This document shows positions 30,034-63,353 of a DNA stretch of 64,000 bases, piece after piece. Under the pieces are notes generated by a model. It made no database searches, was not told the origin of the DNA, and was given only the letters and a program-made list of their open reading frames with translations. A program made the position numbers and the translations under genes. Numbering within the stretch: position 1 is the stretch's first letter; each line of letters starts with the position of its first letter. The DNA is from Candidatus Omnitrophota bacterium (lineage in GTDB: Bacteria > Omnitrophota > Gorgyraeia > Duberdicusellales > 4484-171): contig JAFGQU010000002.1 in the NCBI GenBank assembly GCA_016935525.1, positions 34,560 through 98,559 of the forward strand. The letters run 5' to 3'.

Positions 30034-30046
30034 CGCTCTTTTTAGC

Positions 30047-32037: not shown

Positions 32038-32113
32038 TATAATTCACCATTGACCGGATGTGGTATATATTATTCCGAAAATCAAACCGGGATCTGCATA
32101 TTGGATCTTTGAA

Positions 32114-36005: not shown

Positions 36006-36069
36006 TGATCTCTTCTTTTTTGGCCTATAGTTTTATCTTCTTTTCTATGTTCGGTCATTGCGCTCATTT

Positions 36070-37889: not shown

Positions 37890-37890
37890 A

Positions 37891-39216: not shown

Positions 39217-39264
39217 GCCCGTCCTATATCATTTCGGTCAAAAACAAAAAGAGAATACAGCGAT

Positions 39265-42484: not shown

Positions 42485-42755
42485 TATCGGAAAATACCAA
42501 CAGATCTTTTTCCATTCTGAGGTTCATCTGCCTCAGCTGCCTAAGCTCAAAAAACATACGGAGCGCAAGAAAGGTTATATTACAGTTTAAAAACAAAGTC
42601 GCAAGCAAAGTCATACCCAGGATAAAAATACCCCGGTCAAAAACAAAATATTCCCGGTGGTCAATCCATAAGAACCCTATCCCCAATACTACCCCGCTCA
42701 TAATGATGATCTGGGGGGCAAGAAGCAATGCGGCAATTTTTATTCGTCGGCTCAT
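42411..42755 (-). CDS. small membrane protein with cytoplasmic coiled-coil tail (same architecture as 37416-37889)
   Basis: Three hydrophobic helices, then RQLRQMNLRMEKDLLVFSDIVEKCTKTQTRKIDELSRIMEQHL. Confidence 0.4.
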   Translation of the reverse strand: MSRRIKIAALLLAPQIIIMSGVVLGIGFLWIDHREYFVFDRGIFILGMTLLATLFLNCNITFLALRMFFELRQLRQMNLRMEKDLLVFSDIVEKCTKTQTRKIDELSRIMEQHL

Positions 42756-42765
42756 GTTCTCCTCC

Positions 42766-47646: not shown

Positions 47647-47654
47647 GTTATATC

Positions 47655-48689: not shown

Positions 48690-48724
48690 ATCGACCTTTT
48701 ACCGGTCTCTTTTGGCAATGTTCT

Positions 48725-49726
48725 TTAAAAATAATGACAAAATTGTAAACAGGGATTTTTACATTTTTGGGCTTTCCTTCTCATCTGTCCGGCTTTAGAA
48801 GAATACCAGGCCTGACGTATACCCATCCGATACACATCGCCGCAACTATCCTGGCAAAAAAACACACAAGAACTCATCCGTCCATTACGTTTTTCTCCGG
48901 CAGTAATGATCATGCTTTTATACCCGGCAGCGCATTTCTTGTGAATGCTTTTAAGCGAATAGTAATCCTCAAGGAGGCCGGCGTCGGGATTCCAGTCAAT
49001 ACGAAGATTTTGATACTCATGAGTTAATATCATTTTAAAGTCGTCTTTAAGTCGCATCACGTCATCTTCCTGGGGCCACAAATCGCTTGCCTGAACGCCT
49101 TTAGGAGAATTCTGAGGATCGGTATTGCGCACCAGATACGGTATAAAATTCATCACGTTTACCCCTAACCTGTCGGCAGTGTTCGTCATTTCATACAACT
49201 GCCCGCAGTTGTTACGATAGATCACTGTGCCTACTCCGATCGATTTTACCGGATTAAGCTTCCGCAATAAGACGATGTTCTGCAGCAGACGATCATAGGC
49301 CCCCGCCCCTCTTAGTCGATCATGAGCATCTTTGTTCCCGTCAAAAGAGAAATGCACGTGATCGATAGAGGAAGCAGCGATTCTTTCAATCATCTCCCGG
49401 TTATAATACCCGTTCGTCGTCACCGAAACATCCATATTTCGCTTTTTGATATAGTCGGATATCTCGAATATCTCTTTTACCAAAAACGGTTCTCCGCCGC
49501 TTAATACCACCTGAGAGATCTTCATCTGGCAAGCTTGATCGATAATATCAAATATCTTCGCTACATCCACCGCGCCGCGGGGAGCATCTACCGGCTGTTT
49601 GATGCTGCAGATGCCACACTGTAGATTACATTGGTTGGTAAGCGAAAGAATCATCATCTGCGGCGGCAAAAGCGGCCTCCCCAGATACCGTGACAACCCG
49701 TACACCATCTTTTGAAAAAAAGTCAT
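48725..49726 (-). CDS. radical SAM/SPASM-like protein
   Basis: RYLGRPLLPPQMMILSLTNQCNLQCGICSIK, LSGGEPFLVKE; C-terminal CKNPCLQFCHYF. Confidence 0.8.
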   Translation of the reverse strand: MTFFQKMVYGLSRYLGRPLLPPQMMILSLTNQCNLQCGICSIKQPVDAPRGAVDVAKIFDIIDQACQMKISQVVLSGGEPFLVKEIFEISDYIKKRNMDVSVTTNGYYNREMIERIAASSIDHVHFSFDGNKDAHDRLRGAGAYDRLLQNIVLLRKLNPVKSIGVGTVIYRNNCGQLYEMTNTADRLGVNVMNFIPYLVRNTDPQNSPKGVQASDLWPQEDDVMRLKDDFKMILTHEYQNLRIDWNPDAGLLEDYYSLKSIHKKCAAGYKSMIITAGEKRNGRMSSCVFFCQDSCGDVYRMGIRQAWYSSKAGQMRRKAQKCKNPCLQFCHYF

Positions 49727-49728
49727 AG

Positions 49729-50889
49729 TTACTCCCGGTCCCGTTCTAACAAATATTGATTAAACTCATACGTCTCGCTGCGTAAAGGGCCACAGCATTC
49801 ATGACAGGCCTGGTGAATAAATTGTTTTTGCGATACTTTTTCTCTTAACTTGTTCATCTGGTCGCCCTGCCAGGCTTTTTGGTAAGAATCCCCTATTTTA
49901 CATAATTTGTCTTTGATCAGTGTGCAGGGAGAAAGGTACCCGTCTTCGGAAATCACCAGAGTTTTCCATACATGTATACAATAGAACGGCAGTTGAAGGA
50001 TCCCCTCTTTTTCCTCTCTCCCCGCATTTCTCTCCGGTTTCTTTCCATAATGAGCGAGAAAAAAATTGATATTATGTTTGATCCTCGTCTCATCCGCCTT
50101 TTGCCGCAACAACGAGACGCATTCCCGGGATTCCTCTTCGGTCAGCATCAGCTGTTCGGCGCGAGAATGGACGTTCATCAAAGGCATCAACTGGATCTCT
50201 TCTACTTTTTTTTCAATACAATAATCGATAAGCTCAAGGATCCGACGATAATTTTTCTTATGGACCACCGGGCAACAGATAATGTAAGGAGCCGTTTTAT
50301 CCGATGCCGTTTTTATATCGGCGAATTTCGTTAACGCATTGTCTATTTTCCGGAAATTACCCGGAACCCCCCGTATTTCATCATGGATTTCTCCGGAAGA
50401 AGAATCCAGGCTGATCCTCAACAGATCCCAACGTATATCGTGTAACGCGCCGATAAACGCCTCATCGAGCAGTAACCCGTTCGTAATAAGTATTCCTCTC
50501 ATATTACATTTTTTTATCTCCCTTAAGATCCCGATAATATTTTTATATAATAACGGTTCTCCGCCCCGCCCGCCGATATTCCATACTTCGGTCCCGTTAC
50601 GAGAAGATTCCCGCACAATACCCACAATGCGTTCATAAGGGACTGCCGGTTCAAACTGACGTTGCGAATCGGAATCGTATCCTCCGCAATATTGGCAACG
50701 GGAATTACATATATACGCAGGGAACCATTCGATCATGTATGGACTCTCTAATGAAGAGAATATCGAAGAATAGAGCCGGCCGTAAAGATCTCCGGAAGCG
50801 ACCGGCTCCTTTTGACTATGCCGATACAATATTTTATCGGCGATCTTGCGCAAAAATCCGGATTTTTTAGTACCTGTTTTTTGGTTCAT
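49729..50889 (-). CDS. radical SAM/SPASM-like protein
   Basis: YICNSRCQYCGG, GGRGGEPLLYKN; C-terminal CIHVWKTLV...CTLIKDKLCKIG...CHECCGP. Confidence 0.75.
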   Translation of the reverse strand: MNQKTGTKKSGFLRKIADKILYRHSQKEPVASGDLYGRLYSSIFSSLESPYMIEWFPAYICNSRCQYCGGYDSDSQRQFEPAVPYERIVGIVRESSRNGTEVWNIGGRGGEPLLYKNIIGILREIKKCNMRGILITNGLLLDEAFIGALHDIRWDLLRISLDSSSGEIHDEIRGVPGNFRKIDNALTKFADIKTASDKTAPYIICCPVVHKKNYRRILELIDYCIEKKVEEIQLMPLMNVHSRAEQLMLTEEESRECVSLLRQKADETRIKHNINFFLAHYGKKPERNAGREEKEGILQLPFYCIHVWKTLVISEDGYLSPCTLIKDKLCKIGDSYQKAWQGDQMNKLREKVSQKQFIHQACHECCGPLRSETYEFNQYLLERDRE

Positions 50890-51857
50890 ATTACGTCATA
50901 TATTTCCCGATAGGAATGTTTACTCAATAACACATGCATGCAATTCGAGCATATTTCTCGATAACGCGAGCGCATCTCGACATATTTTTGATTATTCCAG
51001 ATATCCTCAAATGAAGATTGAGTGATATTCCCCATCAGGTCGTTATTCATACAACATCCTAACACGTCGCCGTTGGGGAAAAGATAAAGATTCTTCCACA
51101 ATACCGGGCAATGCCAATCGGCCACTTTTTGTAACGTATTCACGACAGTAAGTGCGGGATGCATCTTTCGGAAGCGTTCCAAAGCGTCTAAAAAATCGAC
51201 GAACTCTCCGTAAGAAGGAAGGTATTCGTCTCTTAATTCTTCTTTGAGAAAAAGGACTTTTGTGTAAATCAGGTTTTTGCAGTGATACTTTGCCCCGACT
51301 TCAAACAGTCGCAATGAATCATCCAGGTTTTTTTTAGTCACTACCGCCGAAAGGTTCAGGTTGAATCCGTAGACATTCTTATATTCCCTCAATCTCTCCA
51401 GAGTCGGAACGATCTTTGAAAAAGGGTACCCCCTGGTCAACTCATTGGTCTTGGGCCCGTCTACGGATATGGTAATGCTCCGGGTACACGGCAACAGTTT
51501 AAATAATATCTTTTCATCGATATCTATCCCGTTGGTGGTAAGAAAAAATTCTATACCCAGAGGAGCCAGTATTTCAATCAATTCTCCCAGATAGGGATAA
51601 AGAAAAGGCTCTCCGGTCACGCTGAATTCCACATACTTTGCCCGGGTAAACAGAAAAATATTATTTTTTATCAATTCCAACGGCATGGTCCCATACTGAA
51701 AACTTTTTTTATTAAGGCCGTGTATTTCACAATACACGCAACGGGCGTTACAATTGTTATTGGTCTGAAGATTGATGATCGTGGGGTAAGACCGCAGGAC
51801 TGTTTTATGTTCACAATATTCCTGCTGATTGAGCTGGGCATTCACTCTACGATCCAT
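50886..51857 (-). CDS. radical SAM/SPASM-like protein
   Basis: TNNNCNARCVYCEI, VTGEPFLYPY; C-terminal WHCPVLWKNLYLFPNGDVLGCCMN...CSNCMHV. Confidence 0.75.
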   Translation of the reverse strand: MDRRVNAQLNQQEYCEHKTVLRSYPTIINLQTNNNCNARCVYCEIHGLNKKSFQYGTMPLELIKNNIFLFTRAKYVEFSVTGEPFLYPYLGELIEILAPLGIEFFLTTNGIDIDEKILFKLLPCTRSITISVDGPKTNELTRGYPFSKIVPTLERLREYKNVYGFNLNLSAVVTKKNLDDSLRLFEVGAKYHCKNLIYTKVLFLKEELRDEYLPSYGEFVDFLDALERFRKMHPALTVVNTLQKVADWHCPVLWKNLYLFPNGDVLGCCMNNDLMGNITQSSFEDIWNNQKYVEMRSRYREICSNCMHVLLSKHSYREIYDVI

Positions 51858-52818
51858 AATTTTCCTGATTGATATGGAGCCCCTGCAAACAAGGTTCCTT
51901 GCAGGTCTTTATTCGTTCCAGTTCGGCCTGATATTCTTCGGAATAGAAAATCTCCTTAAAATCATATGCGTACAGCGGCATCGGGACCTCTTTCCCGCAC
52001 AGATACGGTAATCCTTCACAGGTGATGTTCAGCGATTCGTATCCGGTAAGACATCGCCCGTTTTTTTCTAACACATTGGCGAAATAGTGCATATACGACC
52101 TGATTAAAGGTGCCGGACGGGTACTTATATATTCATGAGCTACCAGATAATCGATGATCTCTTTTAACTTTGCTTTCTCTTTTTCGGTAAGCCGGAATTT
52201 TTCCCGCACATAACATAATTCATTGTTGGGGATTACCGGCTGGACATCAAATCGCACCCCTTTAAATCTCTCAAACTCTTTAAGAAAATCCACAAAATGA
52301 GAAAAATTCTCCGGCATCAATATTGAACTTACCGTCAGGCTCGCGATCTTCTCGGCAAGAAAATATTCTTTATACACCCGCTCAAAATTGTGTACCGTCT
52401 TCTTAAACGTCCCGCCCCCTCTTATAAAATCATGGTCATATTGAAGGCCATCGATAGAAAAGATTATTCCTATTTTTTTCAATTCGTGTTCGTCAAATTG
52501 ATCCAAAAAAACTCCATCAAATAAAGTCCCGTTAGAAATGACATTGACGGTATTTATGTCGCATGCGCAGGTAAATTTCATAATGTGTCCAAGGTCGTCT
52601 CTTAAAAGCGGCTCTCCGCCGCCGAAGGTAATCCGCTGAATAGCACAGTTTCTTTCGAGATTTCCGATAATCTTGATCCACTCCTGGGAAGAGAGTTCCG
52701 ATTCCGCGCCATATTTCCCTTTACCGGTGGTACACATCAGGCATTGCAGGTTACAACGGTTGGTGATCGCGATATAAAATTCGCATATATTAAAATGTTT
52801 ATCTCTCATCTGGCTCAT
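51847..52818 (-). CDS. radical SAM/SPASM-like protein
   Basis: ITNRCNLQCLMCTT, FGGGEPLLRDD; C-terminal CLTGYESLNITCEGLPYLCGK...CKEPCLQG. Confidence 0.75.
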   Translation of the reverse strand: MSQMRDKHFNICEFYIAITNRCNLQCLMCTTGKGKYGAESELSSQEWIKIIGNLERNCAIQRITFGGGEPLLRDDLGHIMKFTCACDINTVNVISNGTLFDGVFLDQFDEHELKKIGIIFSIDGLQYDHDFIRGGGTFKKTVHNFERVYKEYFLAEKIASLTVSSILMPENFSHFVDFLKEFERFKGVRFDVQPVIPNNELCYVREKFRLTEKEKAKLKEIIDYLVAHEYISTRPAPLIRSYMHYFANVLEKNGRCLTGYESLNITCEGLPYLCGKEVPMPLYAYDFKEIFYSEEYQAELERIKTCKEPCLQGLHINQENYGS

Positions 52819-53863
52819 GACATCCTGCTTTTTTTTCTACACCATCACCTTCAAGATAATATTCCAATTCCTGATTCAACTGTTTTATCGGGCTGCAACA
52901 GGACTCATAACAATAAGGATATTCTCTTAAAAATTCGTATTCGCTTAAGATCCGGCCGTAGATCTTTTCTAAGTCGTCCCGGATGACGTTAAATTTTGTC
53001 TTTAAGGGGTCGCCGTTGCATTTAAGCACCTGCCCATCACAGTTGATTAAAAGTTTATACAGATGAAAATAACATATCTTCTTCAAGGGGCTGTGCTGGA
53101 CTGGTCGATGGGAATCCCTGCCGTCGGGGGCCTTTTCGATCCACTCTAACCGGTTAAACGTGACTTTGGTCTCGATTTCTGACAGTAGTGCGCGGAAAGA
53201 CTGCATCTCTTCATCATGAAGACTGAGCGCATCATACTGTTCATTCATCCTGACCAGTTTCAATAATGTAACATTCTTGGCGTTATATGAATCGACGATC
53301 CGAAAATAGTCTTTGACGTACGCATAATTCAATTTATTCACCACCATATTGAAATTGAGATGTACCCGCGGATTTTGTTCTGCCGAATAGCGCAGAAATC
53401 TATGAATCGCTTCCAAGTACTTTTGCTTACCCGGCATCGGCCGCAATTGATATTGGATATCGTCGGAGAAAGAATCGATCGAAACGATGATAATGTCCCA
53501 TCCGATCTCCTTTAAAAATTTCGCGAAATCTTCATCAAGCCGACTCCCGTTGGTCAAAAGCGTGCCAAAAAAACCTCTCTTTTTAATCTCGCCCATAAGG
53601 AATCTCAGGTTTTTAAATACCGTAGGCTCCCCGATCAAAGAAGTCAGCGAGATTTCTTTTACGCCTAAGGCCTGCGCCGAATCAAGAAGACGCAACAGGG
53701 TATCTTTTGACAACAGGTCTTTCGGTTTAGCGCTTATTTTCCCTGAACAATAAAGACAATCCAGATTACAAGAACTGCTTAATGCCAAGTCTAAGCAATA
53801 AGGCCCTTTAGGAGAACAGGTCAGATTATGTTGTACGCGGGCGAGAAAAGCTTGAGAGATCAT
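52799..53863 (-). CDS. radical SAM/SPASM-like protein
   Basis: LSSSCNLDCLYCSGK; C-terminal ICYFHLYKLLINCDGQVLKCNG...CYESCCSP. Confidence 0.7.
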   Translation of the reverse strand: MISQAFLARVQHNLTCSPKGPYCLDLALSSSCNLDCLYCSGKISAKPKDLLSKDTLLRLLDSAQALGVKEISLTSLIGEPTVFKNLRFLMGEIKKRGFFGTLLTNGSRLDEDFAKFLKEIGWDIIIVSIDSFSDDIQYQLRPMPGKQKYLEAIHRFLRYSAEQNPRVHLNFNMVVNKLNYAYVKDYFRIVDSYNAKNVTLLKLVRMNEQYDALSLHDEEMQSFRALLSEIETKVTFNRLEWIEKAPDGRDSHRPVQHSPLKKICYFHLYKLLINCDGQVLKCNGDPLKTKFNVIRDDLEKIYGRILSEYEFLREYPYCYESCCSPIKQLNQELEYYLEGDGVEKKAGCHEPDER

Positions 53864-53865
53864 TT

Positions 53866-56298
53866 TTAAATATTTTTATACATATAACAATCCTGAAAAC
53901 AGCGCACCTTACACTTTTTCGCTTTATCACGAAACGTACGGGCCTCCGGAGAATACCATATCTGTTTTAACGGACGGCTACTGATATTGCCTAACGTACT
54001 GCTGCATAGCCACACATCTCCATTCGCAGTGATGGATAATCGGTTATATCCGGCAAAACATTTCCAATTCACATACTTTTTAGAAAGCAGATAGTTGAGG
54101 TACGCCTGAGGATAAAAAAAGACGCAATTATGAAAACGGCAATAGCCTTCGATTTTCCCGATCTGATCAAATAATATTCCGGGATGTTCGATGTCGGCAA
54201 GCGGACTGTTGATGCCGGCGATCACGTTAGTATTATCATCGACTACGTTTAAAAGCTGGAATTTAGAATAAGGATACAACTGGTGCAGATATCTCACCAG
54301 TTGGTAAAGATCCTGATAATTATATCTCGTGATCAGGATATTAAAACATACTTCAAAACGGACACCTTTGTGCTGCACAAAGTCATATAGTTTTCTTAAA
54401 TTCTCGGTGACGCGGGCGAACGCCCCCGCTCCTCTTATCTCATCATGGGCCGAGGGAAACCCGTCCAGAGAGATATTCAACAGATCGAAAGAGACTGTTT
54501 CGGCAAGAAACCGGTCAAGAAGCATACCGTTAGAACTGAGGTGGAATGAACGACGGTCGTTTTTTACGGTCTCAGCGATCCGGGAAAAATCGGGATGCAG
54601 TAACGGCTCTCCTCCGGTAAGCTGAATGATCTTGTGCGGGTTTTTGAACTCATCGATTTGCTCCAGCAGATCGGTAAACATCGAAAAATCAAGATGCCCC
54701 ACGCATTTATTGGCTTGGCACATCGGACAACGGAGATTACAATGGTCAGTTATTTCGATCATAAAATACTGAGGCTCAACAAAAGGATGCCCGATAAGAC
54801 GGGAAAAAATAAATTTCATTTTTGCCGGATCGATCCTCTGTTTCACTTTTTTCCAACGGTTATAGTAAGATAAGCTCCTCAGAAAAATATTTTTTCCGTT
54901 TCTCTTTGGCGGAGAAAAAAAAGAAGCGAATTTGGCCAAAGAATTCAATAAGCCATAGTGTTTTTTACCGGCATTCTCAATATAGGTCTCAAGCAGGCGC
55001 AGATCCGATTCAAGATAATCTTTTTCCCTCGCGCTCAATCCTCCGATCCGTAGATTCTGCTCAAGAGACCTGATGAAATCATCGATATGCTCTTCGATCA
55101 AATGGTATCCGGCTACAAGGATCGGCCGCAACGGCAACTGGGGATACCGATGGATATATTCTTCCAGAAAATGCAGTTCCCGCATGAGTAAAAAAAAGTT
55201 ATTGTGTTCCATGAGCCGCTGATGGATCTCACTTAATGTATCTGCCGAAGGACGTATAGAACAGAATTGCACGCAATTTGCCTTGCAATTTTTTATGGTC
55301 TCCCGGAAAGACCGGGCCGCGAGGCCAGACCAAACTTCAAAGAGCGAATCTTTTTCGGCTAAACCGAAATGCTGGTCTTTTTCTTTATTGGGCCCATTAC
55401 ACACAAAACAGATCTTCTCTCCTACCGCCAGAGCCCGGCAAAAACCGGCATAACATTTATCAACATAAATCTCGCTGGAAAAATATGTATAGATCTTTTC
55501 GTGAGGGACTTCGATATGGACCCAGGTATGGAAGTTACGCTCTTTTATCTTATCAAGCGTATCTTTAAGCAAAGGCAACCGCTCAGGCGGGATCCAAAAC
55601 CTATCTTCACGACGCCCTTTTAAATCGCTGTTACACACATAGGGTTGAATATGGATACCACAGACATTATACTTTTCACAGAAATCGATCATCTCATACA
55701 TGGTATCCAGGGTCTGGTCCATCAACACCGAACAGGTATCGACCAGAGGATATTTGGTGTTACGGCGTTGTTTTTCAACGTTGATATATTCGAGAGCGTC
55801 AATAATTTTTTCAAACACCCCTGCTCCTCGCAAAGAATCATGAATCTCCTTCTTCGGAGAATCAATGGATATCCCTAATGTCTCCAGCCCCGAATCAAAT
55901 AATCTATTGATTGTTTTATGATCCAGCAGAGTACCGTTGGTATTCACATGCGTACGCACATGAGGGTAGTAGTCGCGGACATATTTTATGAGACTAAAAA
56001 TGTCCGGCCGCAGCAGCGCTTCGCCTCCGGTGAAATACACTTCTTTAAGATTCCCTAAACGATACGCATCGTCAATGAGTTTTTTCACATAAAAAGTATC
56101 TATCTCTTTTTCTTTCACTCGCCAGACACCGCACATCGCACACTGCAAATTACATCTTGTGGTGAGGATCAACTGCAGCATATGCGGGCCGATCAGGGGA
56201 ATATTGAGGGCGAGAGAAAAATTATAGAGATAATCTTCTTTTATCGAATCGAAAAATACAAGTTGCTCGTTGATATTATCCAGACAATAATGAAACAT
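53866..56298 (-). CDS. tandem double radical SAM/SPASM-like protein (two complete rSAM modules in one 810-aa polypeptide)
   Basis: Module 1 has LTTRCNLQCAMCGVW (aa 46-60), FTGGEALLRPD and CKANCVQFCSI. A ~140-aa helical linker follows. Module 2 has ITDHCNLRCPMCQAN (aa 516-530), LTGGEPLLHPD and CKVRCFQDCYM. There is no in-frame stop between them. Confidence 0.8.
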   Translation of the reverse strand: MFHYCLDNINEQLVFFDSIKEDYLYNFSLALNIPLIGPHMLQLILTTRCNLQCAMCGVWRVKEKEIDTFYVKKLIDDAYRLGNLKEVYFTGGEALLRPDIFSLIKYVRDYYPHVRTHVNTNGTLLDHKTINRLFDSGLETLGISIDSPKKEIHDSLRGAGVFEKIIDALEYINVEKQRRNTKYPLVDTCSVLMDQTLDTMYEMIDFCEKYNVCGIHIQPYVCNSDLKGRREDRFWIPPERLPLLKDTLDKIKERNFHTWVHIEVPHEKIYTYFSSEIYVDKCYAGFCRALAVGEKICFVCNGPNKEKDQHFGLAEKDSLFEVWSGLAARSFRETIKNCKANCVQFCSIRPSADTLSEIHQRLMEHNNFFLLMRELHFLEEYIHRYPQLPLRPILVAGYHLIEEHIDDFIRSLEQNLRIGGLSAREKDYLESDLRLLETYIENAGKKHYGLLNSLAKFASFFSPPKRNGKNIFLRSLSYYNRWKKVKQRIDPAKMKFIFSRLIGHPFVEPQYFMIEITDHCNLRCPMCQANKCVGHLDFSMFTDLLEQIDEFKNPHKIIQLTGGEPLLHPDFSRIAETVKNDRRSFHLSSNGMLLDRFLAETVSFDLLNISLDGFPSAHDEIRGAGAFARVTENLRKLYDFVQHKGVRFEVCFNILITRYNYQDLYQLVRYLHQLYPYSKFQLLNVVDDNTNVIAGINSPLADIEHPGILFDQIGKIEGYCRFHNCVFFYPQAYLNYLLSKKYVNWKCFAGYNRLSITANGDVWLCSSTLGNISSRPLKQIWYSPEARTFRDKAKKCKVRCFQDCYMYKNI

Positions 56299-56348: not shown

Positions 56349-58295
56349 TTACACGATACATTCTACCTTTATTTCTCCCGAGGTTTTCCGAGGATCACAA
56401 AAACAAGGTAAAAGACAAGGCCAGGGACACCGGGCAGCCTGGTTGTAAGCATGTATCCTGGCTGCCCCGTCAAGTATATCTCTTAACGACTGCTTTTTTA
56501 TATCGCCATAAAAAGAGAAACAAGTCGCACTTTTACCTTCATTCGCAATAAGCATCGTCTTTTGAGCCGACTTACAGCGGACATCGGTACCGCGCAGCTG
56601 ACGACGATAATATTTTTTCATTAAAAGCAGGTTCTCTTCCGAATTGCAAATGAAATCTTTATAGCGCTTTTTCGTTTGGATCAGCAGATCAACGGTTTTA
56701 TCCAGTAACGGCAGTTGATCCGGAGTGACCCAGAACGGAGACTGCCTCCGGTCAGCCATTCTCAAATTATTCGGCAGAAGCGCTTGAAATTGCAACGAAT
56801 TTACCTTTAATTCATAGAGAAAAGGGATTAACTGCGGCAATTCTTTTAGATTTGCTCCGCAGATAATACTGATTACATTAAACCGGACCTGGGCGCGGCG
56901 GCTTTTAAGCGCTGCCAGCAAACGCAGACTTTCTACCGTATGTTCCCAGGCGCAAGGCGAGTTCCGCATATAATTATGGATTCGGGGAGTAATCGAGTCG
57001 AGAGAGATTATTAAAGATATCGTCTCGTCGGTCAGATAGGGTTCTAAACGAGAAAACATTTCTTTTACGGCCAGACCATTACTTAATACGCCTATCTTTT
57101 TCAGGCCGAGGTGTCGGGCATGATCGAATATTTCCGGAATATCTTTCCTCAAAAGAGGTTCTCCACCGGAAAGGGTAATTTCTTTAATCCCGAGCCGGCG
57201 CGCTTCACGTAAGACTTTTTTTACATACCTCAACTCCAAGTCAGACTCCTCTTTGGCGGTTTTCCAGATGTCACATATCCGACAGGAAAGGTTACAACGA
57301 TGAGTGATGTCCAATATCAAGAGTTGCGGCGGCGGCAGCAGTTGTGGTGTAATTGTCTTATTTTTCTTTACTCTCAGGTACTCGGCAATATTACCCAGTA
57401 TATATACCGCCTTATGGATGCTCAGGCAGATGTACATCGACAGTTTTTTATTGATATTTTTGATCTGTTCTTTACAAATAAGTTTTCTTGCCAATATATA
57501 CACAAAACGGGGAATTTTAAGGATATTGAACGCGGTAGCCCGCCAAAAAGAAAATGTTCCCGGATCAAGCTCTTTCAATAAAGGATGGTCACGGTGGAGA
57601 TATTGGACCAAAAAGTTTCCGCGACCATAGATATAGGCTTGTCGAATAAAACTAAAAAAAGTCTCATCCCGGTCATGGACCACAATAATATCCTGATCCC
57701 AGAGAAACCTCTTACCATTTTTAAAAAGACGCCAGAAAAATTCCAGGTCTTCCCCTCCGGGAAAAGGAAAATGTTCATTAAACCGGGCCTGCTCAAATAC
57801 CTCTTTTTTAAAAGAGACATTGCAGGTGGGGAAGAATATCGCTTGCATTCCTTGACCTATTTTCACTTCAATACTGCACGTACTTAAAAACTGCCCCACC
57901 ATTACATAGCTTCTCTGCTGCGCGGGCAGAGTATCGCCTCCGATGGCCGCAATACCGGGATTATTTCCGTGGGCGGTGACCATTTTTCCTGCCCAATCCC
58001 GCCGGCAGATACAATCATCATCAACAAACCCGATAAGTCGTCCCCGGGCTTGATGTATGCCGAGATTTCTTGCTGCCGCCGGGCCCCGGTGATGTTGCGA
58101 GAAATAGCGCACCTGCGTAAATTCTTTAGCAAAATCCGAAATCAGTTGTTCGACCCGACAGTCGGAGGCATCATCAACAACGATAATCTCAAAATGTTCC
58201 TGAGGATAGTCCTGACCAAGCAAAGCATTAATACAATTTTTGAGCTTTTCTATCCGTTTATATGTGGGGACAATGATCGAAATGATGATATTCAT
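56349..58295 (-). CDS. family 2 glycosyltransferase fused to a C-terminal radical SAM/SPASM-like domain
   Basis: N-terminal IISIIVPTYKRIEKLKNCINALLGQDYPQEHFEIIVVDDASD and FVDDDC (GT2 DxD). A hydrophobic linker follows. The C-terminus has ITHRCNLSCRICDIW, LSGGEPLLRKD and RCPWPCLLPCFC. Start set at MNIIIS (58295), which has AAGGAG 6 nt upstream. Confidence 0.8.
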   Translation of the reverse strand: MNIIISIIVPTYKRIEKLKNCINALLGQDYPQEHFEIIVVDDASDCRVEQLISDFAKEFTQVRYFSQHHRGPAAARNLGIHQARGRLIGFVDDDCICRRDWAGKMVTAHGNNPGIAAIGGDTLPAQQRSYVMVGQFLSTCSIEVKIGQGMQAIFFPTCNVSFKKEVFEQARFNEHFPFPGGEDLEFFWRLFKNGKRFLWDQDIIVVHDRDETFFSFIRQAYIYGRGNFLVQYLHRDHPLLKELDPGTFSFWRATAFNILKIPRFVYILARKLICKEQIKNINKKLSMYICLSIHKAVYILGNIAEYLRVKKNKTITPQLLPPPQLLILDITHRCNLSCRICDIWKTAKEESDLELRYVKKVLREARRLGIKEITLSGGEPLLRKDIPEIFDHARHLGLKKIGVLSNGLAVKEMFSRLEPYLTDETISLIISLDSITPRIHNYMRNSPCAWEHTVESLRLLAALKSRRAQVRFNVISIICGANLKELPQLIPFLYELKVNSLQFQALLPNNLRMADRRQSPFWVTPDQLPLLDKTVDLLIQTKKRYKDFICNSEENLLLMKKYYRRQLRGTDVRCKSAQKTMLIANEGKSATCFSFYGDIKKQSLRDILDGAARIHAYNQAARCPWPCLLPCFCDPRKTSGEIKVECIV

Positions 58296-58387
58296 TGTTG
58301 TCTCCTTACACAGCAAACAGCTGAAAACACCTGTCTTCGCAGAATAAAAAAATAAGGGATTTTTCGTCTCTTTTAAAGAATCCGTTA

Positions 58388-58493: not shown

Positions 58494-61223
58494 TCATTCA
58501 TCAATGACAATATTCCCTTCACAAAGGAGGTATTGCCCGAGCTCATTGAATTTCTGCCCTTCTTCATTAAACCGCAAAATCCTTCCACGATGATAAAGAT
58601 CGGAATTTACTATACAAAACTTTCCCAAAGAAGACGTGAGGGACGAAGAAACCTTTATCGGAGGGAAGTGCTGCCGCCGGGGGCCGTTGACACGAGTAAC
58701 CCCTGATTGAAGATGGTCATATTCTCTGTTGTCTACACAAGCGATGATATCCCATTCATCATCGATTTCTCCACGAAAATCGGGAAAAATCCCCATCCGT
58801 GTGCCGAGATCCCATGTATCATATTCTTCTGAAAGCATAAGATTAGCCTGGATCCGGTCAAAAGCCACCGGCTTATCGATAAAAAGATATATTTGAAAAA
58901 TAATATTATTACTGTTTTCCAATCTCAAACGCCACAATTGCCGCAAAGGTAAAGGCGACCAGTCACCTTCACACATAAGACCTTCAGAGTCCTTTTTTAA
59001 GGTCCAGCGGGCATACGCACAAGAATCGTACCATCTTCCCTGTAATCGCAATGAAGAATAAAATCCTAACTTTTTTGTTAATTTCTGCCCCTGCCAATAG
59101 ATCTGACCCGCGCCTCCTTCAAATATGAACTTCAGGTCTTGCTGCTGTAACGTCCCCGAAGGACCAGTTTCCGACGGAGGAGTATGGCCCGGGAAACAGA
59201 CCGATACGTTAAAATCCTGTTCTTGTTCAACCGATGATGCGCACACGGATTCACCCATGCGATAGAAATTTATCACCCGTTTTTTCCGATAGCGATCACC
59301 GTTAAAGATCTTCGCAAAAGTATCTTTCCCGGCTACGTTCTCCAAATGGACAGGCAGGTATTCTTTTTGCCGGCTATAAAGTCCTATCGACCCTTGAGAA
59401 ATACACCGCTGAAGCACATCTACTTCAAAATCACAAAATTCCTCAGGGAACGCTTTCCTCCCGTAATCAGTCTGGAATTGTTGATAGGTATCGGAAAAAT
59501 AGAATCGTAAATCCTGTTCCTGAATGCGTATCTGACGAGGATTTTCTGTTTTTACCTTCAAGGAAAACGAATCCTTACCGGTCAATTCGATACGCCAGCG
59601 CTGGCGTATCGATAGATCCGGCCAATCACCGATAGCGATAATCCTTCCCTGAGCATCTTTTTCTACTTTCCAAAAAGCACGGGATGAATAATATTCTCTT
59701 GTTTCTACAGTCAGAAAAGAGTTTATTTTACCTACCATGATTTTCTGAAAAGAATTTATAAAGATCGAACATTCCCCCTGGGTAAATACTATCTGCATAT
59801 CCTGATTGTTGAGGATCGAATGTTCATAGGTATTTTTAAGATATGCGTCTGCCTTATCTTTTCCGACGATGATTTTTCCTGAAAAAAACAGCGCCCTTTG
59901 AGCCTGAGTATGCGAATAGTTATGGATATGCGCCAGTTTATATTGGGCTACCCGGCAGCGCAGAGAATAGTCGGTATTATAGATCTGGCTGGTCGCTACC
60001 GGGGTAGCATCATTTTGCGTAACAAGACAAGCCGGGACGGGATTATCGCCTGGCGATGATCCCGGATATACCGCGATGCATTGATGTTCCGAATGCCAGT
60101 TCAATAACGGACGCCAGTTTTTATCTTCAAGGGAAATATCAGGAAACTTTTTACCGTCAAAAGGGGTCCGCCAGCACACATATTCTTCGCTCAACATTAC
60201 ATTAAAATATCCTTCATCCAGATCGATAGTCTGGGCGCTTTCTATTTCAATATCGATATGGATCGCCTCATCCCGGTCAATCCATATATTCCAGACCTGG
60301 GTCAGATCCAACCGCAGCAATTCTCCGCCGGCAATGATTCTTTCGTCATCCTGGCTTACAATATGCCAGTCCCCCTGGGTGGAAGCCGACCATGTATCCT
60401 GCTGATGCATGACCGTATAAACCCCTTCATGAGGAGTAAGTAATGTCTCCCGGTGATATATAAAAAGTTTCCCGTTATTGAAAATAATCTTTACATCTCC
60501 CTTCTCGAAGACGGCGATACCTTGTTTTTCTCCGATCATCTTAGAATAAAGCGGAATGATCTTCTTTCTCGATCCGTCGGCGACTAACCTTCCGTTCTTA
60601 AGAAAAATCACCCGGTCACAAAGCTTAGAAAGTATACTCATGTCATGGGTTACAAAAAACATGGTTTTCCCGGACTCTTTGAGCTCGATGATCTTCTTTA
60701 TGCATTTCCTTTGAAAATATTCGTCGCCCACCGAAAGGGTATCATCGATAAGTACGATCTCCGCCGGAATATGTACCGCCAGAGAAAAAGCCAAGCGGAC
60801 GAACATCCCTTGAGAATAAGATCTAATCGGCGCATCGATGAACCGCCCTAAATCGGCAAAGGCGACAATGACATCATAAAGTCTGCCGATTTTTTCCTGT
60901 GATAAACCGTACAAACCGGCAATAGTAAGGATATTCTGATGTCCGGTCATCTCGGTTTCAAATCCCGCGCCAAATTCCAATAGCCCGGTCACTTTCCCGG
61001 TTACGTATATAGTACCCCTATCGGGGACCAACATGCCGGCAATGACTTTCAAAAGCGTCGATTTCCCTGAGCCGTTCTCACCGATCACCCCGACGGTCTC
61101 TCCGGGAATGACCGAGAAACTAATATCCCGCAATGCCCAAAAGTTTTCCCAGATGATTTTGGACCCCTTAATAAACTTCACCTTATACATTTCCCAGATA
61201 TTATTCGCGCGGATTATTTCCAT
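58494..61223 (-). CDS. ABC transporter ATP-binding protein of the Wzt/TagH polysaccharide-exporter type with ~650-aa repeated C-terminal extension
   Basis: Walker A GENGSGKST, signature YSQGMFVRLAFS, Walker B EIVLIDDTLSVGDE. The start is reset to MEIIRANN (61223), just after the permease stop. The C-terminal region holds three copies plus a truncated fourth of a ~125-aa module; each copy has GDW...L...W and two copies end in MLSEEY..W. Confidence 0.75.
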   Translation of the reverse strand: MEIIRANNIWEMYKVKFIKGSKIIWENFWALRDISFSVIPGETVGVIGENGSGKSTLLKVIAGMLVPDRGTIYVTGKVTGLLEFGAGFETEMTGHQNILTIAGLYGLSQEKIGRLYDVIVAFADLGRFIDAPIRSYSQGMFVRLAFSLAVHIPAEIVLIDDTLSVGDEYFQRKCIKKIIELKESGKTMFFVTHDMSILSKLCDRVIFLKNGRLVADGSRKKIIPLYSKMIGEKQGIAVFEKGDVKIIFNNGKLFIYHRETLLTPHEGVYTVMHQQDTWSASTQGDWHIVSQDDERIIAGGELLRLDLTQVWNIWIDRDEAIHIDIEIESAQTIDLDEGYFNVMLSEEYVCWRTPFDGKKFPDISLEDKNWRPLLNWHSEHQCIAVYPGSSPGDNPVPACLVTQNDATPVATSQIYNTDYSLRCRVAQYKLAHIHNYSHTQAQRALFFSGKIIVGKDKADAYLKNTYEHSILNNQDMQIVFTQGECSIFINSFQKIMVGKINSFLTVETREYYSSRAFWKVEKDAQGRIIAIGDWPDLSIRQRWRIELTGKDSFSLKVKTENPRQIRIQEQDLRFYFSDTYQQFQTDYGRKAFPEEFCDFEVDVLQRCISQGSIGLYSRQKEYLPVHLENVAGKDTFAKIFNGDRYRKKRVINFYRMGESVCASSVEQEQDFNVSVCFPGHTPPSETGPSGTLQQQDLKFIFEGGAGQIYWQGQKLTKKLGFYSSLRLQGRWYDSCAYARWTLKKDSEGLMCEGDWSPLPLRQLWRLRLENSNNIIFQIYLFIDKPVAFDRIQANLMLSEEYDTWDLGTRMGIFPDFRGEIDDEWDIIACVDNREYDHLQSGVTRVNGPRRQHFPPIKVSSSLTSSLGKFCIVNSDLYHRGRILRFNEEGQKFNELGQYLLCEGNIVIDE

Positions 61224-61230
61224 TCTATTC

Positions 61231-62013
61231 TTATAGTTCTTTGAGAAAATATTTCTTTCTGGAAAGAAAAAAAAGATACCCCGCTCCGAATGTGACCAGC
61301 CCCAGGAAAATCGCAACACCCCACAGATGAGCACCGGGAAATTGTCCGAACAAAAGGATATCGCGATATATACGGATATAAAAAACCATGGCATTACAAT
61401 TATACATCCATCGAACTGGATCGGGGACCATATCGATCGAATAGAATATCGGCGTGATCCAAAACCAGAATAACAATATTGTCCCCAAAAGGTGAGAAAG
61501 GTCTCTCACAAACACGTTCACGCAGGCGACCACAAGGCCAAGTCCGGCTACGAAAAACAGATGGGCCAGAAGGACCAACGGCAACCCGAGTAAAGTTTTG
61601 GTTACCTGTATATTAAACAGACAGAATATCGGGATAATAAAAATAAGCCCAAAGACAAAATTGATGAAATTCGCACATACTACCGAAAGCGGGATAAATT
61701 CCACGGGAAGATTATACTGACGTAAAAGCTGCGCTTTTTGGATTATTGATACTGAAGATTCCGATAACGATACTGAGAAGAAAAACCAGGGGAGCAAACC
61801 GGCTAATGAAAACAAAGAAAAATTCTCAATATTTACTTTTATGATCTTGGTAAAGATAAACGTCACGGTCGCCATGATCAGCAAAGGAGTGACTACCGAC
61901 CACCATACCCCTAACAGCGAACCGATATACTTGGTCTTCAGTTCTTTTTTTATCAGACTCCACAAAATATGTCTCTGCGAGATCAATACGTTCATACCTA
62001 CCGGAGTGGTCAT
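61231..62013 (-). CDS. ABC-2 type transporter permease (Wzm/TagG-like)
   Basis: 260 aa and six predicted TM helices. The N-terminal cytoplasmic KKELKTKYIGSLLGVWWSVVTPL block is typical of ABC-2 permeases. It overlaps the upstream gene by 4 nt and precedes the ATPase. Confidence 0.7.
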   Translation of the reverse strand: MTTPVGMNVLISQRHILWSLIKKELKTKYIGSLLGVWWSVVTPLLIMATVTFIFTKIIKVNIENFSLFSLAGLLPWFFFSVSLSESSVSIIQKAQLLRQYNLPVEFIPLSVVCANFINFVFGLIFIIPIFCLFNIQVTKTLLGLPLVLLAHLFFVAGLGLVVACVNVFVRDLSHLLGTILLFWFWITPIFYSIDMVPDPVRWMYNCNAMVFYIRIYRDILLFGQFPGAHLWGVAIFLGLVTFGAGYLFFLSRKKYFLKEL

Positions 62014-63353
62014 CGATGCGCCAATAAAGCTGCCGTACGTTCGGCTTCCAAAATCACATCTTCCATCGACATATATTGCCAGCCGCCAAAACGCCCCACC
62101 GGGAAGATATGGTAGGCATGTAAGTATTTCAAAATATTACTCCTGGCGGTTTTCCACTCGAAATCATAAAGAGGATACGCAAAGGGTATATCGTTTACAT
62201 GGATTGTCTCGATCGCGTGCGGCGAAGAGATGATCTTCGCTTTCATTAAATCGTCTATCGCCTGCTTTTCTATTTTCTTATCCAGAGGCTTCCCTTTAGA
62301 ATATGAGACTTCCACATAGAGCGATCTCTTTCCCGGAGGGACCAAAGAAGGAGAAAACCGGTCAAAACATCCCACTCGAAAGAAAGAATGCGCGTGTTCC
62401 GGAAAATACATCCAATGATGATCAAAATTGACCGGTTGAGCAAGCCCTAAATTTATATTATATATCGAAGTCCACCTTAATTTTTTAAAGTCATCACGGA
62501 CCGTATCGGGTAACCCGGCGATTACGTTCGCCAAAAGGGGCAACGGCATAGTAGAAACCAGCCGGTCATACTGCTGGGAGGACCCGTGAGAAAACCAGAT
62601 ACGTCTTGTGACCGGATCGATTCTCACGACTTCATGTTCGGTATGCATAGATTGATTACCGCGGGTAAAAGACTTGATCAACTGCTCAATCCCTCCGGAA
62701 GAAGGGTACCAGAAAAAAGAATGGTAACCTAACCTTCTTTTTTCTTCTCTTTGAATCCGGGCCCGGACTTGCCTGAGGGTAGGTACGACGATAAAATCAT
62801 TCACCCACTCACAGGAAAGTTCTTCTAAAGAAACCGTCCAGAATTTTTCATTATAAGGTTTCATGAAGTATTCGGTGATCGCCCGGCCGAAATGACAATG
62901 ACTCCATTGAGCAAAATTCTCCGGATGATCGCTCGGTATTCTCTTTTTTGCTTGAATAAAGCCTTCAAGACACGCAGCACGTACCTGTGGCGGCAACCCA
63001 TGGAGATTTGCCTGAAAAGGATAACGGATATGTGTATTGAATATAGAGACCGAAGCATCGCGTCGATGGCGGGTCAGATCCTTCCCCATAAGAGAATGAA
63101 GTAACGTGAATACTTCCGGACGTCTAAAATGCAGTAAATGGCCGCAATAATCAAACGTATACCCGTTGATATGCGTGGAACGACAAAGCCCGCCTATATT
63201 TTTTTCTTTTTCATATACTGGCGCGGTAATACCGGATCCTCTCAAGAAAAAGGCAGTCGCAATCCCGGAGAGACCCGCGCCAATAATGATGATTTTTCCA
63301 CCCGGAAGGGAATCCTGGGCGCGATGGATTAAGGAATGCGTCTCTGTGGACAT
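62010..63353 (-). CDS. FAD-dependent oxidoreductase of the UDP-galactopyranose mutase / amine-oxidase fold (Glf-like)
   Basis: KIIIIGAGLSGIATAFFL Rossmann GxGxxG, EKEKNIGGLCRS and GHLLHF blocks resemble UDP-galactopyranose mutase; 447 aa. Confidence 0.5.
   Translation of the reverse strand: MSTETHSLIHRAQDSLPGGKIIIIGAGLSGIATAFFLRGSGITAPVYEKEKNIGGLCRSTHINGYTFDYCGHLLHFRRPEVFTLLHSLMGKDLTRHRRDASVSIFNTHIRYPFQANLHGLPPQVRAACLEGFIQAKKRIPSDHPENFAQWSHCHFGRAITEYFMKPYNEKFWTVSLEELSCEWVNDFIVVPTLRQVRARIQREEKRRLGYHSFFWYPSSGGIEQLIKSFTRGNQSMHTEHEVVRIDPVTRRIWFSHGSSQQYDRLVSTMPLPLLANVIAGLPDTVRDDFKKLRWTSIYNINLGLAQPVNFDHHWMYFPEHAHSFFRVGCFDRFSPSLVPPGKRSLYVEVSYSKGKPLDKKIEKQAIDDLMKAKIISSPHAIETIHVNDIPFAYPLYDFEWKTARSNILKYLHAYHIFPVGRFGGWQYMSMEDVILEAERTAALLAHR

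Follow-up and report, generated by a model that had tools for sequence, protein, structure and literature searches.

One open reading frame of Candidatus Omnitrophota encodes, as read from its sequence, a complete family 2 glycosyltransferase (GT2) module with intact catalytic residues and a complete radical SAM domain. The gene lies within a cell-surface polysaccharide export locus. Because the conserved fusion sits in such a locus, the data suggest that Omnitrophota tailor a surface sugar polymer through uncharacterised radical reactions. The window, the whole stretch of DNA that was analysed, covers 64,000 nucleotides, and its relevant features are given in Table 1.

Table 1. Positions in the window of the fusion gene, its domains and the neighbouring genes
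Feature	Position	Strand	Remarks
GT2-radical SAM fusion gene	56349..58295	minus	ORF, 648 aa plus stop, ATG start; Pfam
Shine-Dalgarno AGGAG	58302..58306	minus	6 nt 5′ of the fusion ATG; good ribosome-binding site
GT-A catalytic domain, aa 1-234	57594..58295	minus	D42, D92xD94 (58014-58022), E182-D183 (57747-57752), Q219..Y223
Amphipathic helical subdomain of the GT module, aa 235-311	57363..57593	minus	conserved; non-transmembrane
True inter-domain linker, aa 312-324	57324..57362	minus	13 residues; variable, low-confidence
Radical SAM core, aa 325-510	56766..57323	minus	C334x3C338x2C341 (57273-57296), G377-G378-E379
C-terminal bridging and Cys-rich auxiliary-cluster region, aa 511-648	56352..56765	minus	(near-)invariant Cys
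Cys of the C-terminal region	56397-56576	minus	C574, G587x4C592, C623x3C627x3C631xC633
Wzt/TagH-like ABC ATPase	58494..61223	minus	909 aa when read from M58 in the listed ORF
ATPase C-terminal ~600 aa	58497-60320	minus	repeated all-beta domains
ABC-2 (Wzm-like) permease	61231..62013	minus	Pfam PF01061; in 33/36 loci
FAD/NAD-binding oxidoreductase (PRK07208 family, amine-oxidase-like)	62010..63353	minus	Pfam, NCBIfam; in 27/36 loci
Double radical SAM protein, directly downstream	53866..56298	minus	810 aa; Pfam; two CX3CX2C (motif scan)
Nine stand-alone radical SAM paralogs in tandem	44203..53863	minus	Pfam; BLAST with the fusion radical SAM domain
Distal cluster part	27810..44163	minus	three B12-radical SAM, four more radical SAM, two GT2 (Pfam, NCBIfam)
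Distal cluster part, also	27810..44163	minus	methyltransferase, AsnB-like amidotransferase, TPR protein, small ORFs

The GT2 module and the authenticity of the fusion

In the protein, the GT2 module spans aa 1-311 and the radical SAM domain aa 325-648, and a Pfam scan matched both: Glycos_transf_2 (PF00535) at aa 6-119 (1.9e-28; 99.9 bits, cut-off 23.3), Glyco_tranf_2_3 (PF13641) at aa 5-219 (48.9 bits, cut-off 27) and Radical_SAM (PF04055) at aa 330-490 (5.2e-22; 79.2 bits, cut-off 29.5). The N-terminal GT2 domain with VPTYKR and FVDDDC (D92xD94), recognised in the preliminary description, is indeed present. Furthermore, D42, D92xD94 and E182-D183 are invariant among 38 aligned orthologues, so that the GT2 half does not lack its catalytic residues. 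The module has a GT-A Rossmann-like fold, with the nucleotide-binding Asp after beta-2, the metal site DxD and, further downstream, an acidic residue which is probably the catalytic base; the spacing parallels that of D39, D98-D99 and D191 in SpsA.

The two halves had been thought to be joined by a hydrophobic linker, a view that has to be revised. Residues 235-311 form three well-predicted amphipathic helices (AF2 pLDDT about 95) which are highly conserved (column conservation 0.63; H294, K295, Y298, G301 and E305 invariant) and belong to the GT module; the same subdomain is found in stand-alone GT2 relatives of 300-330 aa. This region contains no transmembrane segment since the maximum 19-residue Kyte-Doolittle mean is only 1.29, and hydropathy together with the AF2 model rules out a transmembrane linker. 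The true linker is confined to aa 312-324, with a column conservation of 0.25 compared with 0.62-0.68 elsewhere in the fusion and a pLDDT below 50 at aa 314-318. The relative orientation of the two domains is not confidently predicted (pTM 0.60).

About 280 residues of hyaluronan synthase (HAS) align with the fusion, more than the GT-A core alone, and the match may extend into the helices beyond that core. However, HAS, BcsA and chitin synthase are membrane-embedded processive GT2 enzymes, whereas the fusion has neither transmembrane helices nor a channel. The QxxRW motif of HAS/BcsA-type synthases is not conserved as such, being replaced by QAYxYGRGN, in which Q219xxxY223 would keep the same spacing. 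No NCBIfam model reached its equivalog cut-off with the fusion or its neighbours. The GT2 domain is neither an MftF nor an EpsD equivalog: MftF (TIGR03965), its second-best NCBIfam match (4.2e-37), gave 128.1 bits for a cut-off of 280, and EpsD (NF041875) 133.4 bits for a cut-off of 370.

A protein of 648 aa with 100% identity is present in NCBI, from a Candidatus Omnitrophica MAG. Searches of NCBI, JGI, ENA and Logan assemblies for the fused architecture retrieved more than 120 orthologue clusters from independent assemblies, all full-length fusions with 45-57% identity and nearly all from Omnitrophota. The best 120 homologous clusters measure about 605-670 aa each, except two of 963 aa, and cover 93-99% of the query. 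Since these clusters are full-length and each carries both PF00535 and PF04055, the fusion does not result from a frameshift or a merge error. The architecture also occurs in 59 genome loci, its GT2 and radical SAM halves being equally conserved and diverging jointly, and the junction is a short, variable, in-frame linker. That adjacent genes were joined through a frameshift or an assembly error, one of the doubts raised at the outset, is thus hardly conceivable, and nothing in the clusters, the loci or the junction speaks for it. More divergent GT2-radical SAM fusions are likewise located in Wzm/Wzt loci. Upstream of the fusion gene, one promoter-like site was found, no more than expected by chance.

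The radical SAM domain and its paralogs

The radical SAM motifs quoted earlier, ITHRCNLSCRICDIW (C334x3C338x2C341) and RCPWPCLLPCFC, are both present. C334, C338 and C341 (CX3CX2C) and G377-G378-E379 (GGE) are invariant across the orthologue alignment, and the domain adopts the partial TIM-barrel fold. The assignment to radical SAM/SPASM therefore holds for its first term, while the second needs qualification: Pfam SPASM (PF13186) has no match in the fusion protein at E≤0.01 and is matched in a minority of orthologues and variants. Six C-terminal Cys, C574-x17-C592 (GX4C kept) then C623x3C627x3C631xC633, depart from the canonical seven-Cys pattern CX9-15GX4C...CX2CX5CX3C...C, which goes with two auxiliary clusters in the SPASM subfamily. 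Judged by this pattern, the region is best called SPASM/twitch-like, and it presumably holds an auxiliary Fe-S cluster.

Fifteen other radical SAM proteins of the window share 23-31% identity with the fusion domain (BLAST, E down to 7e-38) and have the C-terminal CxxxCxxxC motif in common with it. They were correctly placed in one paralog family, but the relationship is distant. The cluster in the window comprises 19 radical SAM domains, and 3-12 more are found near the fusion in related loci. The double radical SAM protein ends with a SPASM domain and has a 786-aa counterpart in two loci (L002 and L003).

Among solved structures, the radical domain matches BlsE best, in sequence as well as in fold (PDB 7VOB; PMC3715490); BlsE is the radical SAM enzyme that decarboxylates cytosylglucuronate during blasticidin S biosynthesis. 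The identity is only 19%, and the C-terminal motif is CxCxxC in BlsE versus CxxxCxxxCxC in the fusion. Moreover, BlsE works as a separate protein in the synthesis of a nucleoside antibiotic and acts on a free nucleoside-sugar, whereas the domain studied here is linked to a GT2. The BlsE model TIGR04466 (equivalog at ≥400 bits) is absent from the 25 best NCBIfam families of the fusion and gives 38-42 bits for two radical SAM paralogs in the window. The fusion is thus not a BlsE equivalog, the likeness being limited to fold and distant sequence. The RiPP maturases SkfB and SuiB are the next-best fold matches; viperin, MoaA and DesII match significantly in sequence and fold with lower scores than these three, and tetraether synthase (Tes/GDGT-MAS) and HpnH give weak but significant matches.

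The polysaccharide export locus

Among 36 related loci, the gene order is a WecA-like initiating transferase, the FAD oxidoreductase, the Wzm-like permease, the Wzt-like ATPase and then the fusion. Permease and ATPase adjoin the fusion in 32-33 of the 36, and a gene for a WecA-like/Glycos_transf_4 polyprenyl-phosphate HexNAc-1-P transferase, the initiator expected of such pathways, is found upstream in 26; no such gene lies inside the window, which ends 647 nt beyond the FAD oxidoreductase. The ATPase best matches TagH/Wzt models, below their equivalog cut-offs. An ABC-2 permease and a TagH/Wzt-type ATPase are therefore encoded together with glycosyltransferases, as expected for ABC-transporter-dependent assembly. 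GDSL-family proteins often neighbour the fusion loci.

The C-terminal 608 aa of the ATPase have no Pfam or PDB match, whether the query is one sequence or a profile, and PF14524 (Wzt_C) has no match in the protein. Fold comparison of the predicted structure revealed galactose-mutarotase-like repeats, and the extension of about 600 aa is accordingly predicted to adopt carbohydrate-binding folds. ABC-transporter-dependent O-antigen assembly uses multi-module glycosyltransferase/terminator proteins, e.g., in K. pneumoniae O4/O7 (PMC11231755), and the carbohydrate-binding domain of Wzt recognises the cap (PMC9445017). The present locus resembles these systems in cytoplasmic polyprenol-linked assembly, variably fused catalytic modules and Wzm/Wzt export, and its ATPase also has an extra domain, which the predicted fold suggests to be sugar-recognising. 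It differs from them in several respects: the fused tailoring modules known for O antigens are kinases, methyltransferases or further glycosyltransferases and here a radical SAM domain, galactose-mutarotase-like repeats stand in place of the Wzt_C jelly roll, and a coiled-coil ruler is not seen.

Proposed function and alternatives

We consider it fairly probable that the fusion is a bifunctional enzyme of a Wzm/Wzt-type pathway, which probably builds a polyprenol-linked surface glycan conserved across Omnitrophota. The GT2 module would be peripheral, at the cytoplasmic face of the membrane, and would work as an inverting, metal-dependent transferase through its DxD, D183 in the 'ED' motif serving as the base. 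Its sugar donor would be an NDP-sugar, and its acceptor a lipid-linked molecule already primed by the WecA-like enzyme. The attached radical SAM domain would then remove a hydrogen atom, either from the sugar thus added or from the donor immediately ahead of the transfer, leading to a redox-type tailoring of the sugar. Since BlsE is the closest solved relative and the paralogs are similar to NirJ/AhbD, the most concrete candidate is a C5 decarboxylation that converts a uronic acid into a pentose; other classes of reaction, namely epimerisation, dehydrogenation and deoxygenation, are just as possible. The stand-alone radical SAM and B12-radical SAM paralogs, the methyltransferase and the AsnB-like amidotransferase may modify the product further. 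Wzm/Wzt would export it, and the C-terminal domains of the ATPase may recognise it. In a more specific and doubtful version, the fusion is the constant catalytic partner of a new Wzt type: it would add a sugar, either terminal or serving as an adaptor, and radically remodel it (decarboxylation, epimerisation and C-C or C-O rearrangement being examples), the triple galactose-mutarotase-like domain would read this cap, and 3-19 radical SAM paralogs would diversify the polymer.

GT2 and radical SAM genes are known as pairs in mycofactocin (MftF/MftC) and arsenosugar synthesis (ArsS and the TIGR04283 glycosyltransferase), and in the hopanoid pathway HpnJ, a radical SAM enzyme, rearranges the sugar installed by the GT2 HpnI. 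In these pairs, as in the fusion, the two activities share a pathway. However, the partners are separate proteins, the fusion reaches none of their model cut-offs, and their products are cofactors or lipids rather than glycans exported by Wzm/Wzt.

The radical SAM domain might instead act on a nucleotide-sugar or nucleotide before transfer, an unstable or unusual NDP-sugar being handed to the fused GT2 site. Fusion is a classic route for channelling a labile intermediate, the substrate of BlsE is itself a nucleoside-sugar, and viperin, MoaA and DesII, whose substrates are nucleotide-linked, are among the significant matches; we nevertheless think this rather unlikely, given their scores below BlsE, SkfB and SuiB, the low-confidence domain orientation, and the many radical SAM paralogs unfused to glycosyltransferases, which fit tailoring of an assembled glycan at least equally well. 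It is also unlikely that the radical SAM domain, like its paralogs, alters an isoprenoid or alkyl chain, with the GT2 adding a head-group sugar and the ABC-2 transporter flipping the glycolipid. Tes, HpnH and the enzymes of carrier-lipid saturation and cyclisation are precedents for such chemistry; the matches to Tes/GDGT-MAS and HpnH, the CrtI/HpnE-like FAD oxidoreductase conserved in the core and the frequent GDSL-family neighbours are consistent with it.

Glycan rather than peptide chemistry, as first proposed for the paralogs, is supported by the Wzm/Wzt and WecA-like context and by the search for a precursor peptide. No conserved precursor-like ORF was found in the intergenic gaps of the cluster, which yielded, besides chance ORFs, a single ORF of 114 aa with a putative membrane product, and Pfam detected no PqqD/RRE domain or peptidase family among the cluster proteins. 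The cluster does not, therefore, qualify as a RiPP maturation system. A RiPP-like or mycofactocin-like route, in which radical SAM/SPASM-like enzymes modify or cross-link a ribosomal peptide glycosylated by the GT2, is for these reasons very improbable. MftF and the glycocin S-glycosyltransferases are precedents for the glycosylation. Such a route would accord with the ranks of SkfB and SuiB after BlsE and of MftF among the GT2 matches, and with the B12-radical SAM enzymes, methyltransferase and Asn-synthase homologue, which occur together in some RiPP clusters. However, the MftF score of 128 bits lies far from 280, the conserved gene order at the core comprises WecA-like, Wzm and Wzt genes, and for the AsnB-like protein an EPS amidotransferase model outscores lasso cyclase.

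Omnitrophota are a little-known phylum of uncultured, ultra-small bacteria, and sugar-acting radical SAM enzymes are known chiefly from small-molecule antibiotic pathways. To our knowledge, routine tailoring of exported bacterial polysaccharides is not an established role of any radical SAM enzyme, and we know of none fused to a glycosyltransferase. The coupling had been presented as uncharacterised, and we found no account of it in the literature on Omnitrophota or on glycosyltransferases and radical SAM enzymes, where radical SAM is mentioned generically. The phylum-conserved fusion provides a physical link between GT2 and radical SAM activities and, with 648 aa and no membrane segments, a tractable single-protein way into loci with as many as 19 radical SAM domains. 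If the radical SAM domain acts on the transferred sugar, this would be new carbohydrate chemistry, would help to define the envelope of Omnitrophota, and would indicate the class of substrate for a large group of 'radical SAM/SPASM' genes, which genome-mining tools probably label as RiPP or 'ladderane' clusters. A Wzt variant with mutarotase-like domains would, if real, widen the known glycan recognition by ABC transporters, and if such domains read a radically remodelled cap, the Omnitrophota glycan would be the first polysaccharide structured largely by radical SAM chemistry.

Integrity and anatomy of the fusion protein

The preliminary description had proposed that a GT2 glycosyltransferase is fused to a radical SAM (rSAM) domain in a single gene, and had named a merge of two genes by assembly or frameshift error among the results that would refute this reading. 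A protein 100% identical to the fusion was found in a Candidatus Omnitrophica MAG (contig of 171,716 nt). Furthermore, each of the best 120 homologous clusters, drawn from NCBI, JGI, ENA and Logan assemblies, contains the two domains, with 93-99% query coverage and 45-57% identity. Such full-length orthologues across assemblies rule out a merge, and the fusion is no artefact. A scan of species-representative genomes gave 65 loci, labelled almost all as Omnitrophota, some under placeholders such as 'uncultured Planctomycetales'. In an alignment of 38 orthologues, the GT and rSAM halves are equally conserved (column conservation 0.62-0.68; mean pairwise identity 0.505 and 0.538, respectively), their divergences are correlated (r = 0.68), and only residues 312-324 are variable (conservation 0.25). 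Fusions, orthologous or divergent, were also observed in MAGs that carry the label Nanoarchaeota, Woesearchaeota, Thorarchaeota or Paceibacterota (loci L048, L051, L061, L037 and L071; proteins P0267 and P0272); the 'Nanoarchaeota' contig, L071, bears bacterial-type MurA/MurB-like genes. These labels could reflect mis-binned co-filtered ultra-small cells or lateral transfer.

The four sequence strings quoted earlier were all found in the ORF, and Pfam scanning placed both domains within it: Glycos_transf_2 at aa 6-119 (1.9e-28), Glyco_tranf_2_3 at aa 5-219 and Radical_SAM at aa 330-490 (5.2e-22). Because an AGGAG sits 6 nt upstream of the ATG at 58295, the longer listed TTG start is unlikely. 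A promoter-like site (TTGTTA, 17 nt, TATAAT, with TG ahead of the -10; 10/12 matches) falls in the 198-nt gap between the fusion and the upstream Wzt/TagH-like ABC ATPase gene; the number of such sites in the region was not above chance. The two genes are near-contiguous in most related loci.

The AlphaFold2 model (mean pLDDT 87.9, pTM 0.60) predicts the succession of modules listed in the table. Its final 20 residues are of low confidence, as would be expected from metal-free modelling of a cluster-binding loop. The catalytic residues of the GT2 module are intact, and the invariant positions comprise D42, R76-N77, D92xD94-C95, F154xPTCN159, G181-E182-D183, H207, Q219, Y223-G224 and G226-N227, followed in the helical subdomain by H294, K295, Y298, G301 and E305. 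In the rSAM domain they are C334x3C338x2C341, G377-G378-E379, S431xD433, H440 and R444, and toward the C-terminus C574, G587x4C592 and C623x3C627x3C631, with C633 kept in at least 90% of the sequences. Two GT2 catalytic motifs contain a cysteine, C95 and C158, invariant in 38/38 sequences, and C21 is nearly invariant. Cysteine at the C95 and C158 positions is unusual; these residues may form a metal site, take part in redox chemistry or be purely structural.

The 'hydrophobic linker' reported between the domains did not hold: this stretch contains no transmembrane segment (maximum 19-residue hydropathy 1.29). The helices in question belong to the GT module, since a stand-alone 316-aa GT2 from a Brevinematales MAG matches fusion residues 3-310 with 43% identity, and there is a small set of similar proteins of 300-330 aa. 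The gene for the 316-aa protein (locus L063, 10001-10951), encoding a GT-A domain plus helical subdomain, lies beside genes for a CBM-bearing GH5 cellulase, a LacI regulator and a sugar ABC importer; none of the five neighbouring ORFs checked encodes an rSAM protein. The GT2 module also overlaps hyaluronan synthase (HAS) over ~280 residues, longer than the GT-A core, so that this match may reach helices beyond the core as well. The ED motif of the fusion is followed 36 residues on by Q219xxxY223, which presumably parallels the TED...QxxRW of the HAS branch; the similar spacing serves as a lead only.

Kinship of the radical SAM half

The C-terminal part had been assigned a SPASM domain. No Pfam SPASM match was obtained, and the fusion has a six-Cys pattern instead of the canonical seven-Cys motif. 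Because the rSAM paralogs of the window share its C...GxxxxC...CxxxCxxxC arrangement, it is best described as a SPASM/twitch-like variant. Membership in the same paralog family extends to 15 other rSAM proteins of the window, as claimed, but the kinship is distant (23-31% identity). Several paralogs score best with NirJ/AhbD/W_rSAM_matur-type models. Nine of the 18 other rSAM motifs of the cluster (genes 39265-56298) read CxxxCxMC, Met taking the place of the usual aromatic residue; in the fusion the motif is CxxxCxIC.

The best PDB match of the rSAM domain by sequence was BlsE, the cytosylglucuronate decarboxylase of blasticidin S biosynthesis (5e-16 when searched as a family profile, 2.2e-12 as a single domain). 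It was also the best match by fold, where SkfB (23.5), SuiB (23.4) and anSME (21.2) came next among rSAM enzymes, then viperin (19.9), DesII (19.5) and MoaA (19.2). BlsE strips the C5 carboxylate from a glucuronic acid residue and is 35% identical to NirJ; its sequence contains GGEP and an unusual CxxxCxMC, as well as a C-terminal motif rich in Cys (PMC3715490); the CxxxCxMC peculiarity thus recurs in nine window motifs but not in the fusion. Each domain clearly belongs to its superfamily, and no NCBIfam equivalog model was matched, those for BlsE, MftF, EpsD, MoaA, NirJ and the rest all scoring below their cut-offs.

The gene cluster and related loci

All genes from ~27,810 to 63,353 lie on the minus strand, with gaps mostly below 80 nt or overlaps. 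The order is a PRK07208-family FAD oxidoreductase, an ABC-2 permease, the ATPase, the fusion, a double rSAM protein and nine stand-alone rSAM genes; then a B12-rSAM, a methyltransferase, an rSAM, an rSAM/SPASM, a 441-aa MftF-like GT2 and an unknown ORF; and lastly a B12-rSAM, a TPR protein, an AsnB-like amidotransferase, two rSAMs, a B12-rSAM and a GT2. These about 36 kb (27810-63353) hold three GT2 genes and 19 CX3CX2C domains, spread over 18 genes, of which three encode B12-binding rSAMs. Housekeeping genes (PEPCK, PurC, ETF, SMC, DnaG, RpoD, GatA/B, TsaD) fill the rest of the window, which indicates a normal chromosomal setting.

Features of the fusion and its surroundings (window positions, or residues of the fusion)
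Feature	Position	Strand	Remarks
GT2-rSAM fusion ORF	56349..58295	-	648 aa
GT-A domain	aa 1-234		AlphaFold2 model
Three long helices	aa 247-311		AlphaFold2 model, confident prediction
Disordered linker	aa 312-324		AlphaFold2 model, pLDDT <50 over residues 314-318
Radical SAM barrel and beta-rich, Cys-rich C-terminal region	C-terminal half		AlphaFold2 model
D92xD94 in the DDDC95 motif	58014-58022		
C158 in the FFPTC158N motif	57822-57824		
Promoter-like site	58388-58416	-	
FAD/NAD-binding amine-oxidase-like protein	62010-63353	-	PRK07208 family, uncharacterised
Double rSAM protein	53866-56298	-	810 aa; CNLQCAMC at aa 49, CNLRCPMC at aa 520
ORF with hydrophobic segments	42411-42755	-	114 aa; in 281-nt gap between B12-rSAM and methyltransferase
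B12-binding rSAM	330-1802	-	far end of window
GDSL/SGNH-family protein	1768-2835	-	far end of window

The double rSAM protein has two complete radical SAM domains and a SPASM match at its C-terminus only; loci L002 and L003 have a counterpart of 786 aa. The 114-aa ORF, possibly a small membrane protein, runs over the TTG listed as the start of the methyltransferase, whose true start is probably further on. The B12-rSAM and GDSL/SGNH pair is set apart from the main cluster by about 25 kb of housekeeping genes; elsewhere (L002, L004, L071) both families are found flanking the fusion.

Related loci share a core of Glycos_transf_4 (WecA-like), amine-oxidase-like, ABC2_membrane, 905-911-aa ABC ATPase, fusion and rSAM arrays; in one of them NDP-sugar epimerases or dehydratases are present too, along with GT1, GT2 and Wzy_C. 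Among 36 loci of at least 15 kb, with these neighbours all on the strand of the fusion, the permease was present in 33, the ATPase in 32 (median position directly upstream of the fusion), the FAD oxidoreductase in 27, between the WecA-like gene and the permease, and the WecA-like GT4 in 26. The oxidoreductase resembles UDP-galactopyranose mutase, HpnE and CrtI only weakly and in part; a sugar or the lipid carrier is its candidate substrate. In the 31 loci that span at least 20 kb, 3-12 rSAM domains (median 7) share the strand of the fusion and lie no more than 10 kb from it, and array size varies widely, up to the 19 of the window.

The ATPase truly starts at M58 of the listed ORF (nt 61223), since the NCBI protein has 909 aa. 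Its C-terminal ~600 aa, conserved in more than 40 loci and built with three internal repeats, matched no sequence in Pfam or the PDB, whether a single sequence or a 27-member profile served as query. This region is not the Wzt_C jelly roll, yet it is predicted to be a sugar-binding fold. It sits where Wzt proteins carry their cap-recognising domain (PMC9445017).

Recurrence and candidate chemistry

The architecture is not confined to one family. An exhaustive HMMER search of 1.84 billion representatives gave 355 proteins at E<=1e-30. Pfam scans of selected matches, one homologue-search protein and one neighbouring gene revealed, beside the orthologous family, B12-rSAM+GT2+rSAM (1161 aa), GT2+rSAM+rSAM/SPASM (963 aa), GT2+rSAM/SPASM+rSAM (1179 aa), GT2...rSAM/SPASM (880 aa) and separate GT2+rSAM(+SPASM) families of 600-650 aa with 27-30% identity to the fusion; some bear Nanoarchaeota or Thorarchaeota MAG labels. 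One divergent fusion lies with an ABC ATPase bearing a true Wzt_C, an ABC-2 permease, a GT1, three GT2, MurA/MurB-like genes, GDSL proteins, a B12-rSAM and an rSAM/SPASM. That such fusions arose repeatedly and independently in like loci is strong evidence, of the Rosetta-stone kind, that glycosyl transfer and radical chemistry are functionally linked.

These analyses show that the fusion is bifunctional by sequence and predicted fold, that both active-site signatures are under purifying selection and that the gene lies within a glycan locus of the Wzm/Wzt type. We propose that the GT2 module would add a sugar onto a lipid-linked acceptor at the cytoplasmic membrane face, and that the tethered rSAM domain would tailor the transferred sugar by abstracting a hydrogen from it or from the donor. 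Further tailoring before export would fall to the stand-alone paralogs, the B12-rSAM methylases, the methyltransferase and the amidotransferase, and the predicted sugar-binding domains of the ATPase may recognise the product. The most concrete candidate chemistry, itself rather unlikely, is uronic acid decarboxylation, suggested by the BlsE/NirJ affinity and also by the AsnB-like amidotransferase, which among NCBIfam models scores best to one for exopolysaccharide amidotransferases.

Action of the rSAM domain on an NDP-sugar donor, in the manner of viperin, MoaA or DesII, is a rival to tailoring of the transferred sugar. Tailoring of a lipid or glycolipid would fit the similarity to Tes and HpnH, the GDSL neighbours and the conservation of an oxidoreductase resembling CrtI and HpnE. 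Against a RiPP or mycofactocin-like pathway stands the cluster itself, in which a search revealed neither a precursor nor an RRE or peptidase. The earlier proposal that the rSAM proteins act in glycan chemistry gains computational support.

GT2 and rSAM enzymes occur as separate proteins in mycofactocin, hopanoid and arsenosugar pathways. Full-text searching of the literature gave no account of a GT2-rSAM fusion, in agreement with the earlier remark that no such combination was known to be characterised, nor of a polysaccharide locus in which radical SAM enzymes predominate, and databases label the proteins merely 'glycosyltransferase' or 'radical SAM protein'. ABC-transporter-dependent glycan assembly commonly uses enzymes with several modules (PMC11231755), but the known fused tailoring modules are kinases, methyltransferases and further GTs, whereas here it is an rSAM domain. 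The system is best regarded as Wzm/Wzt glycan assembly in which a tailoring module is fused to the glycosyltransferase, and the chemistry of the fusion could be categorically new.
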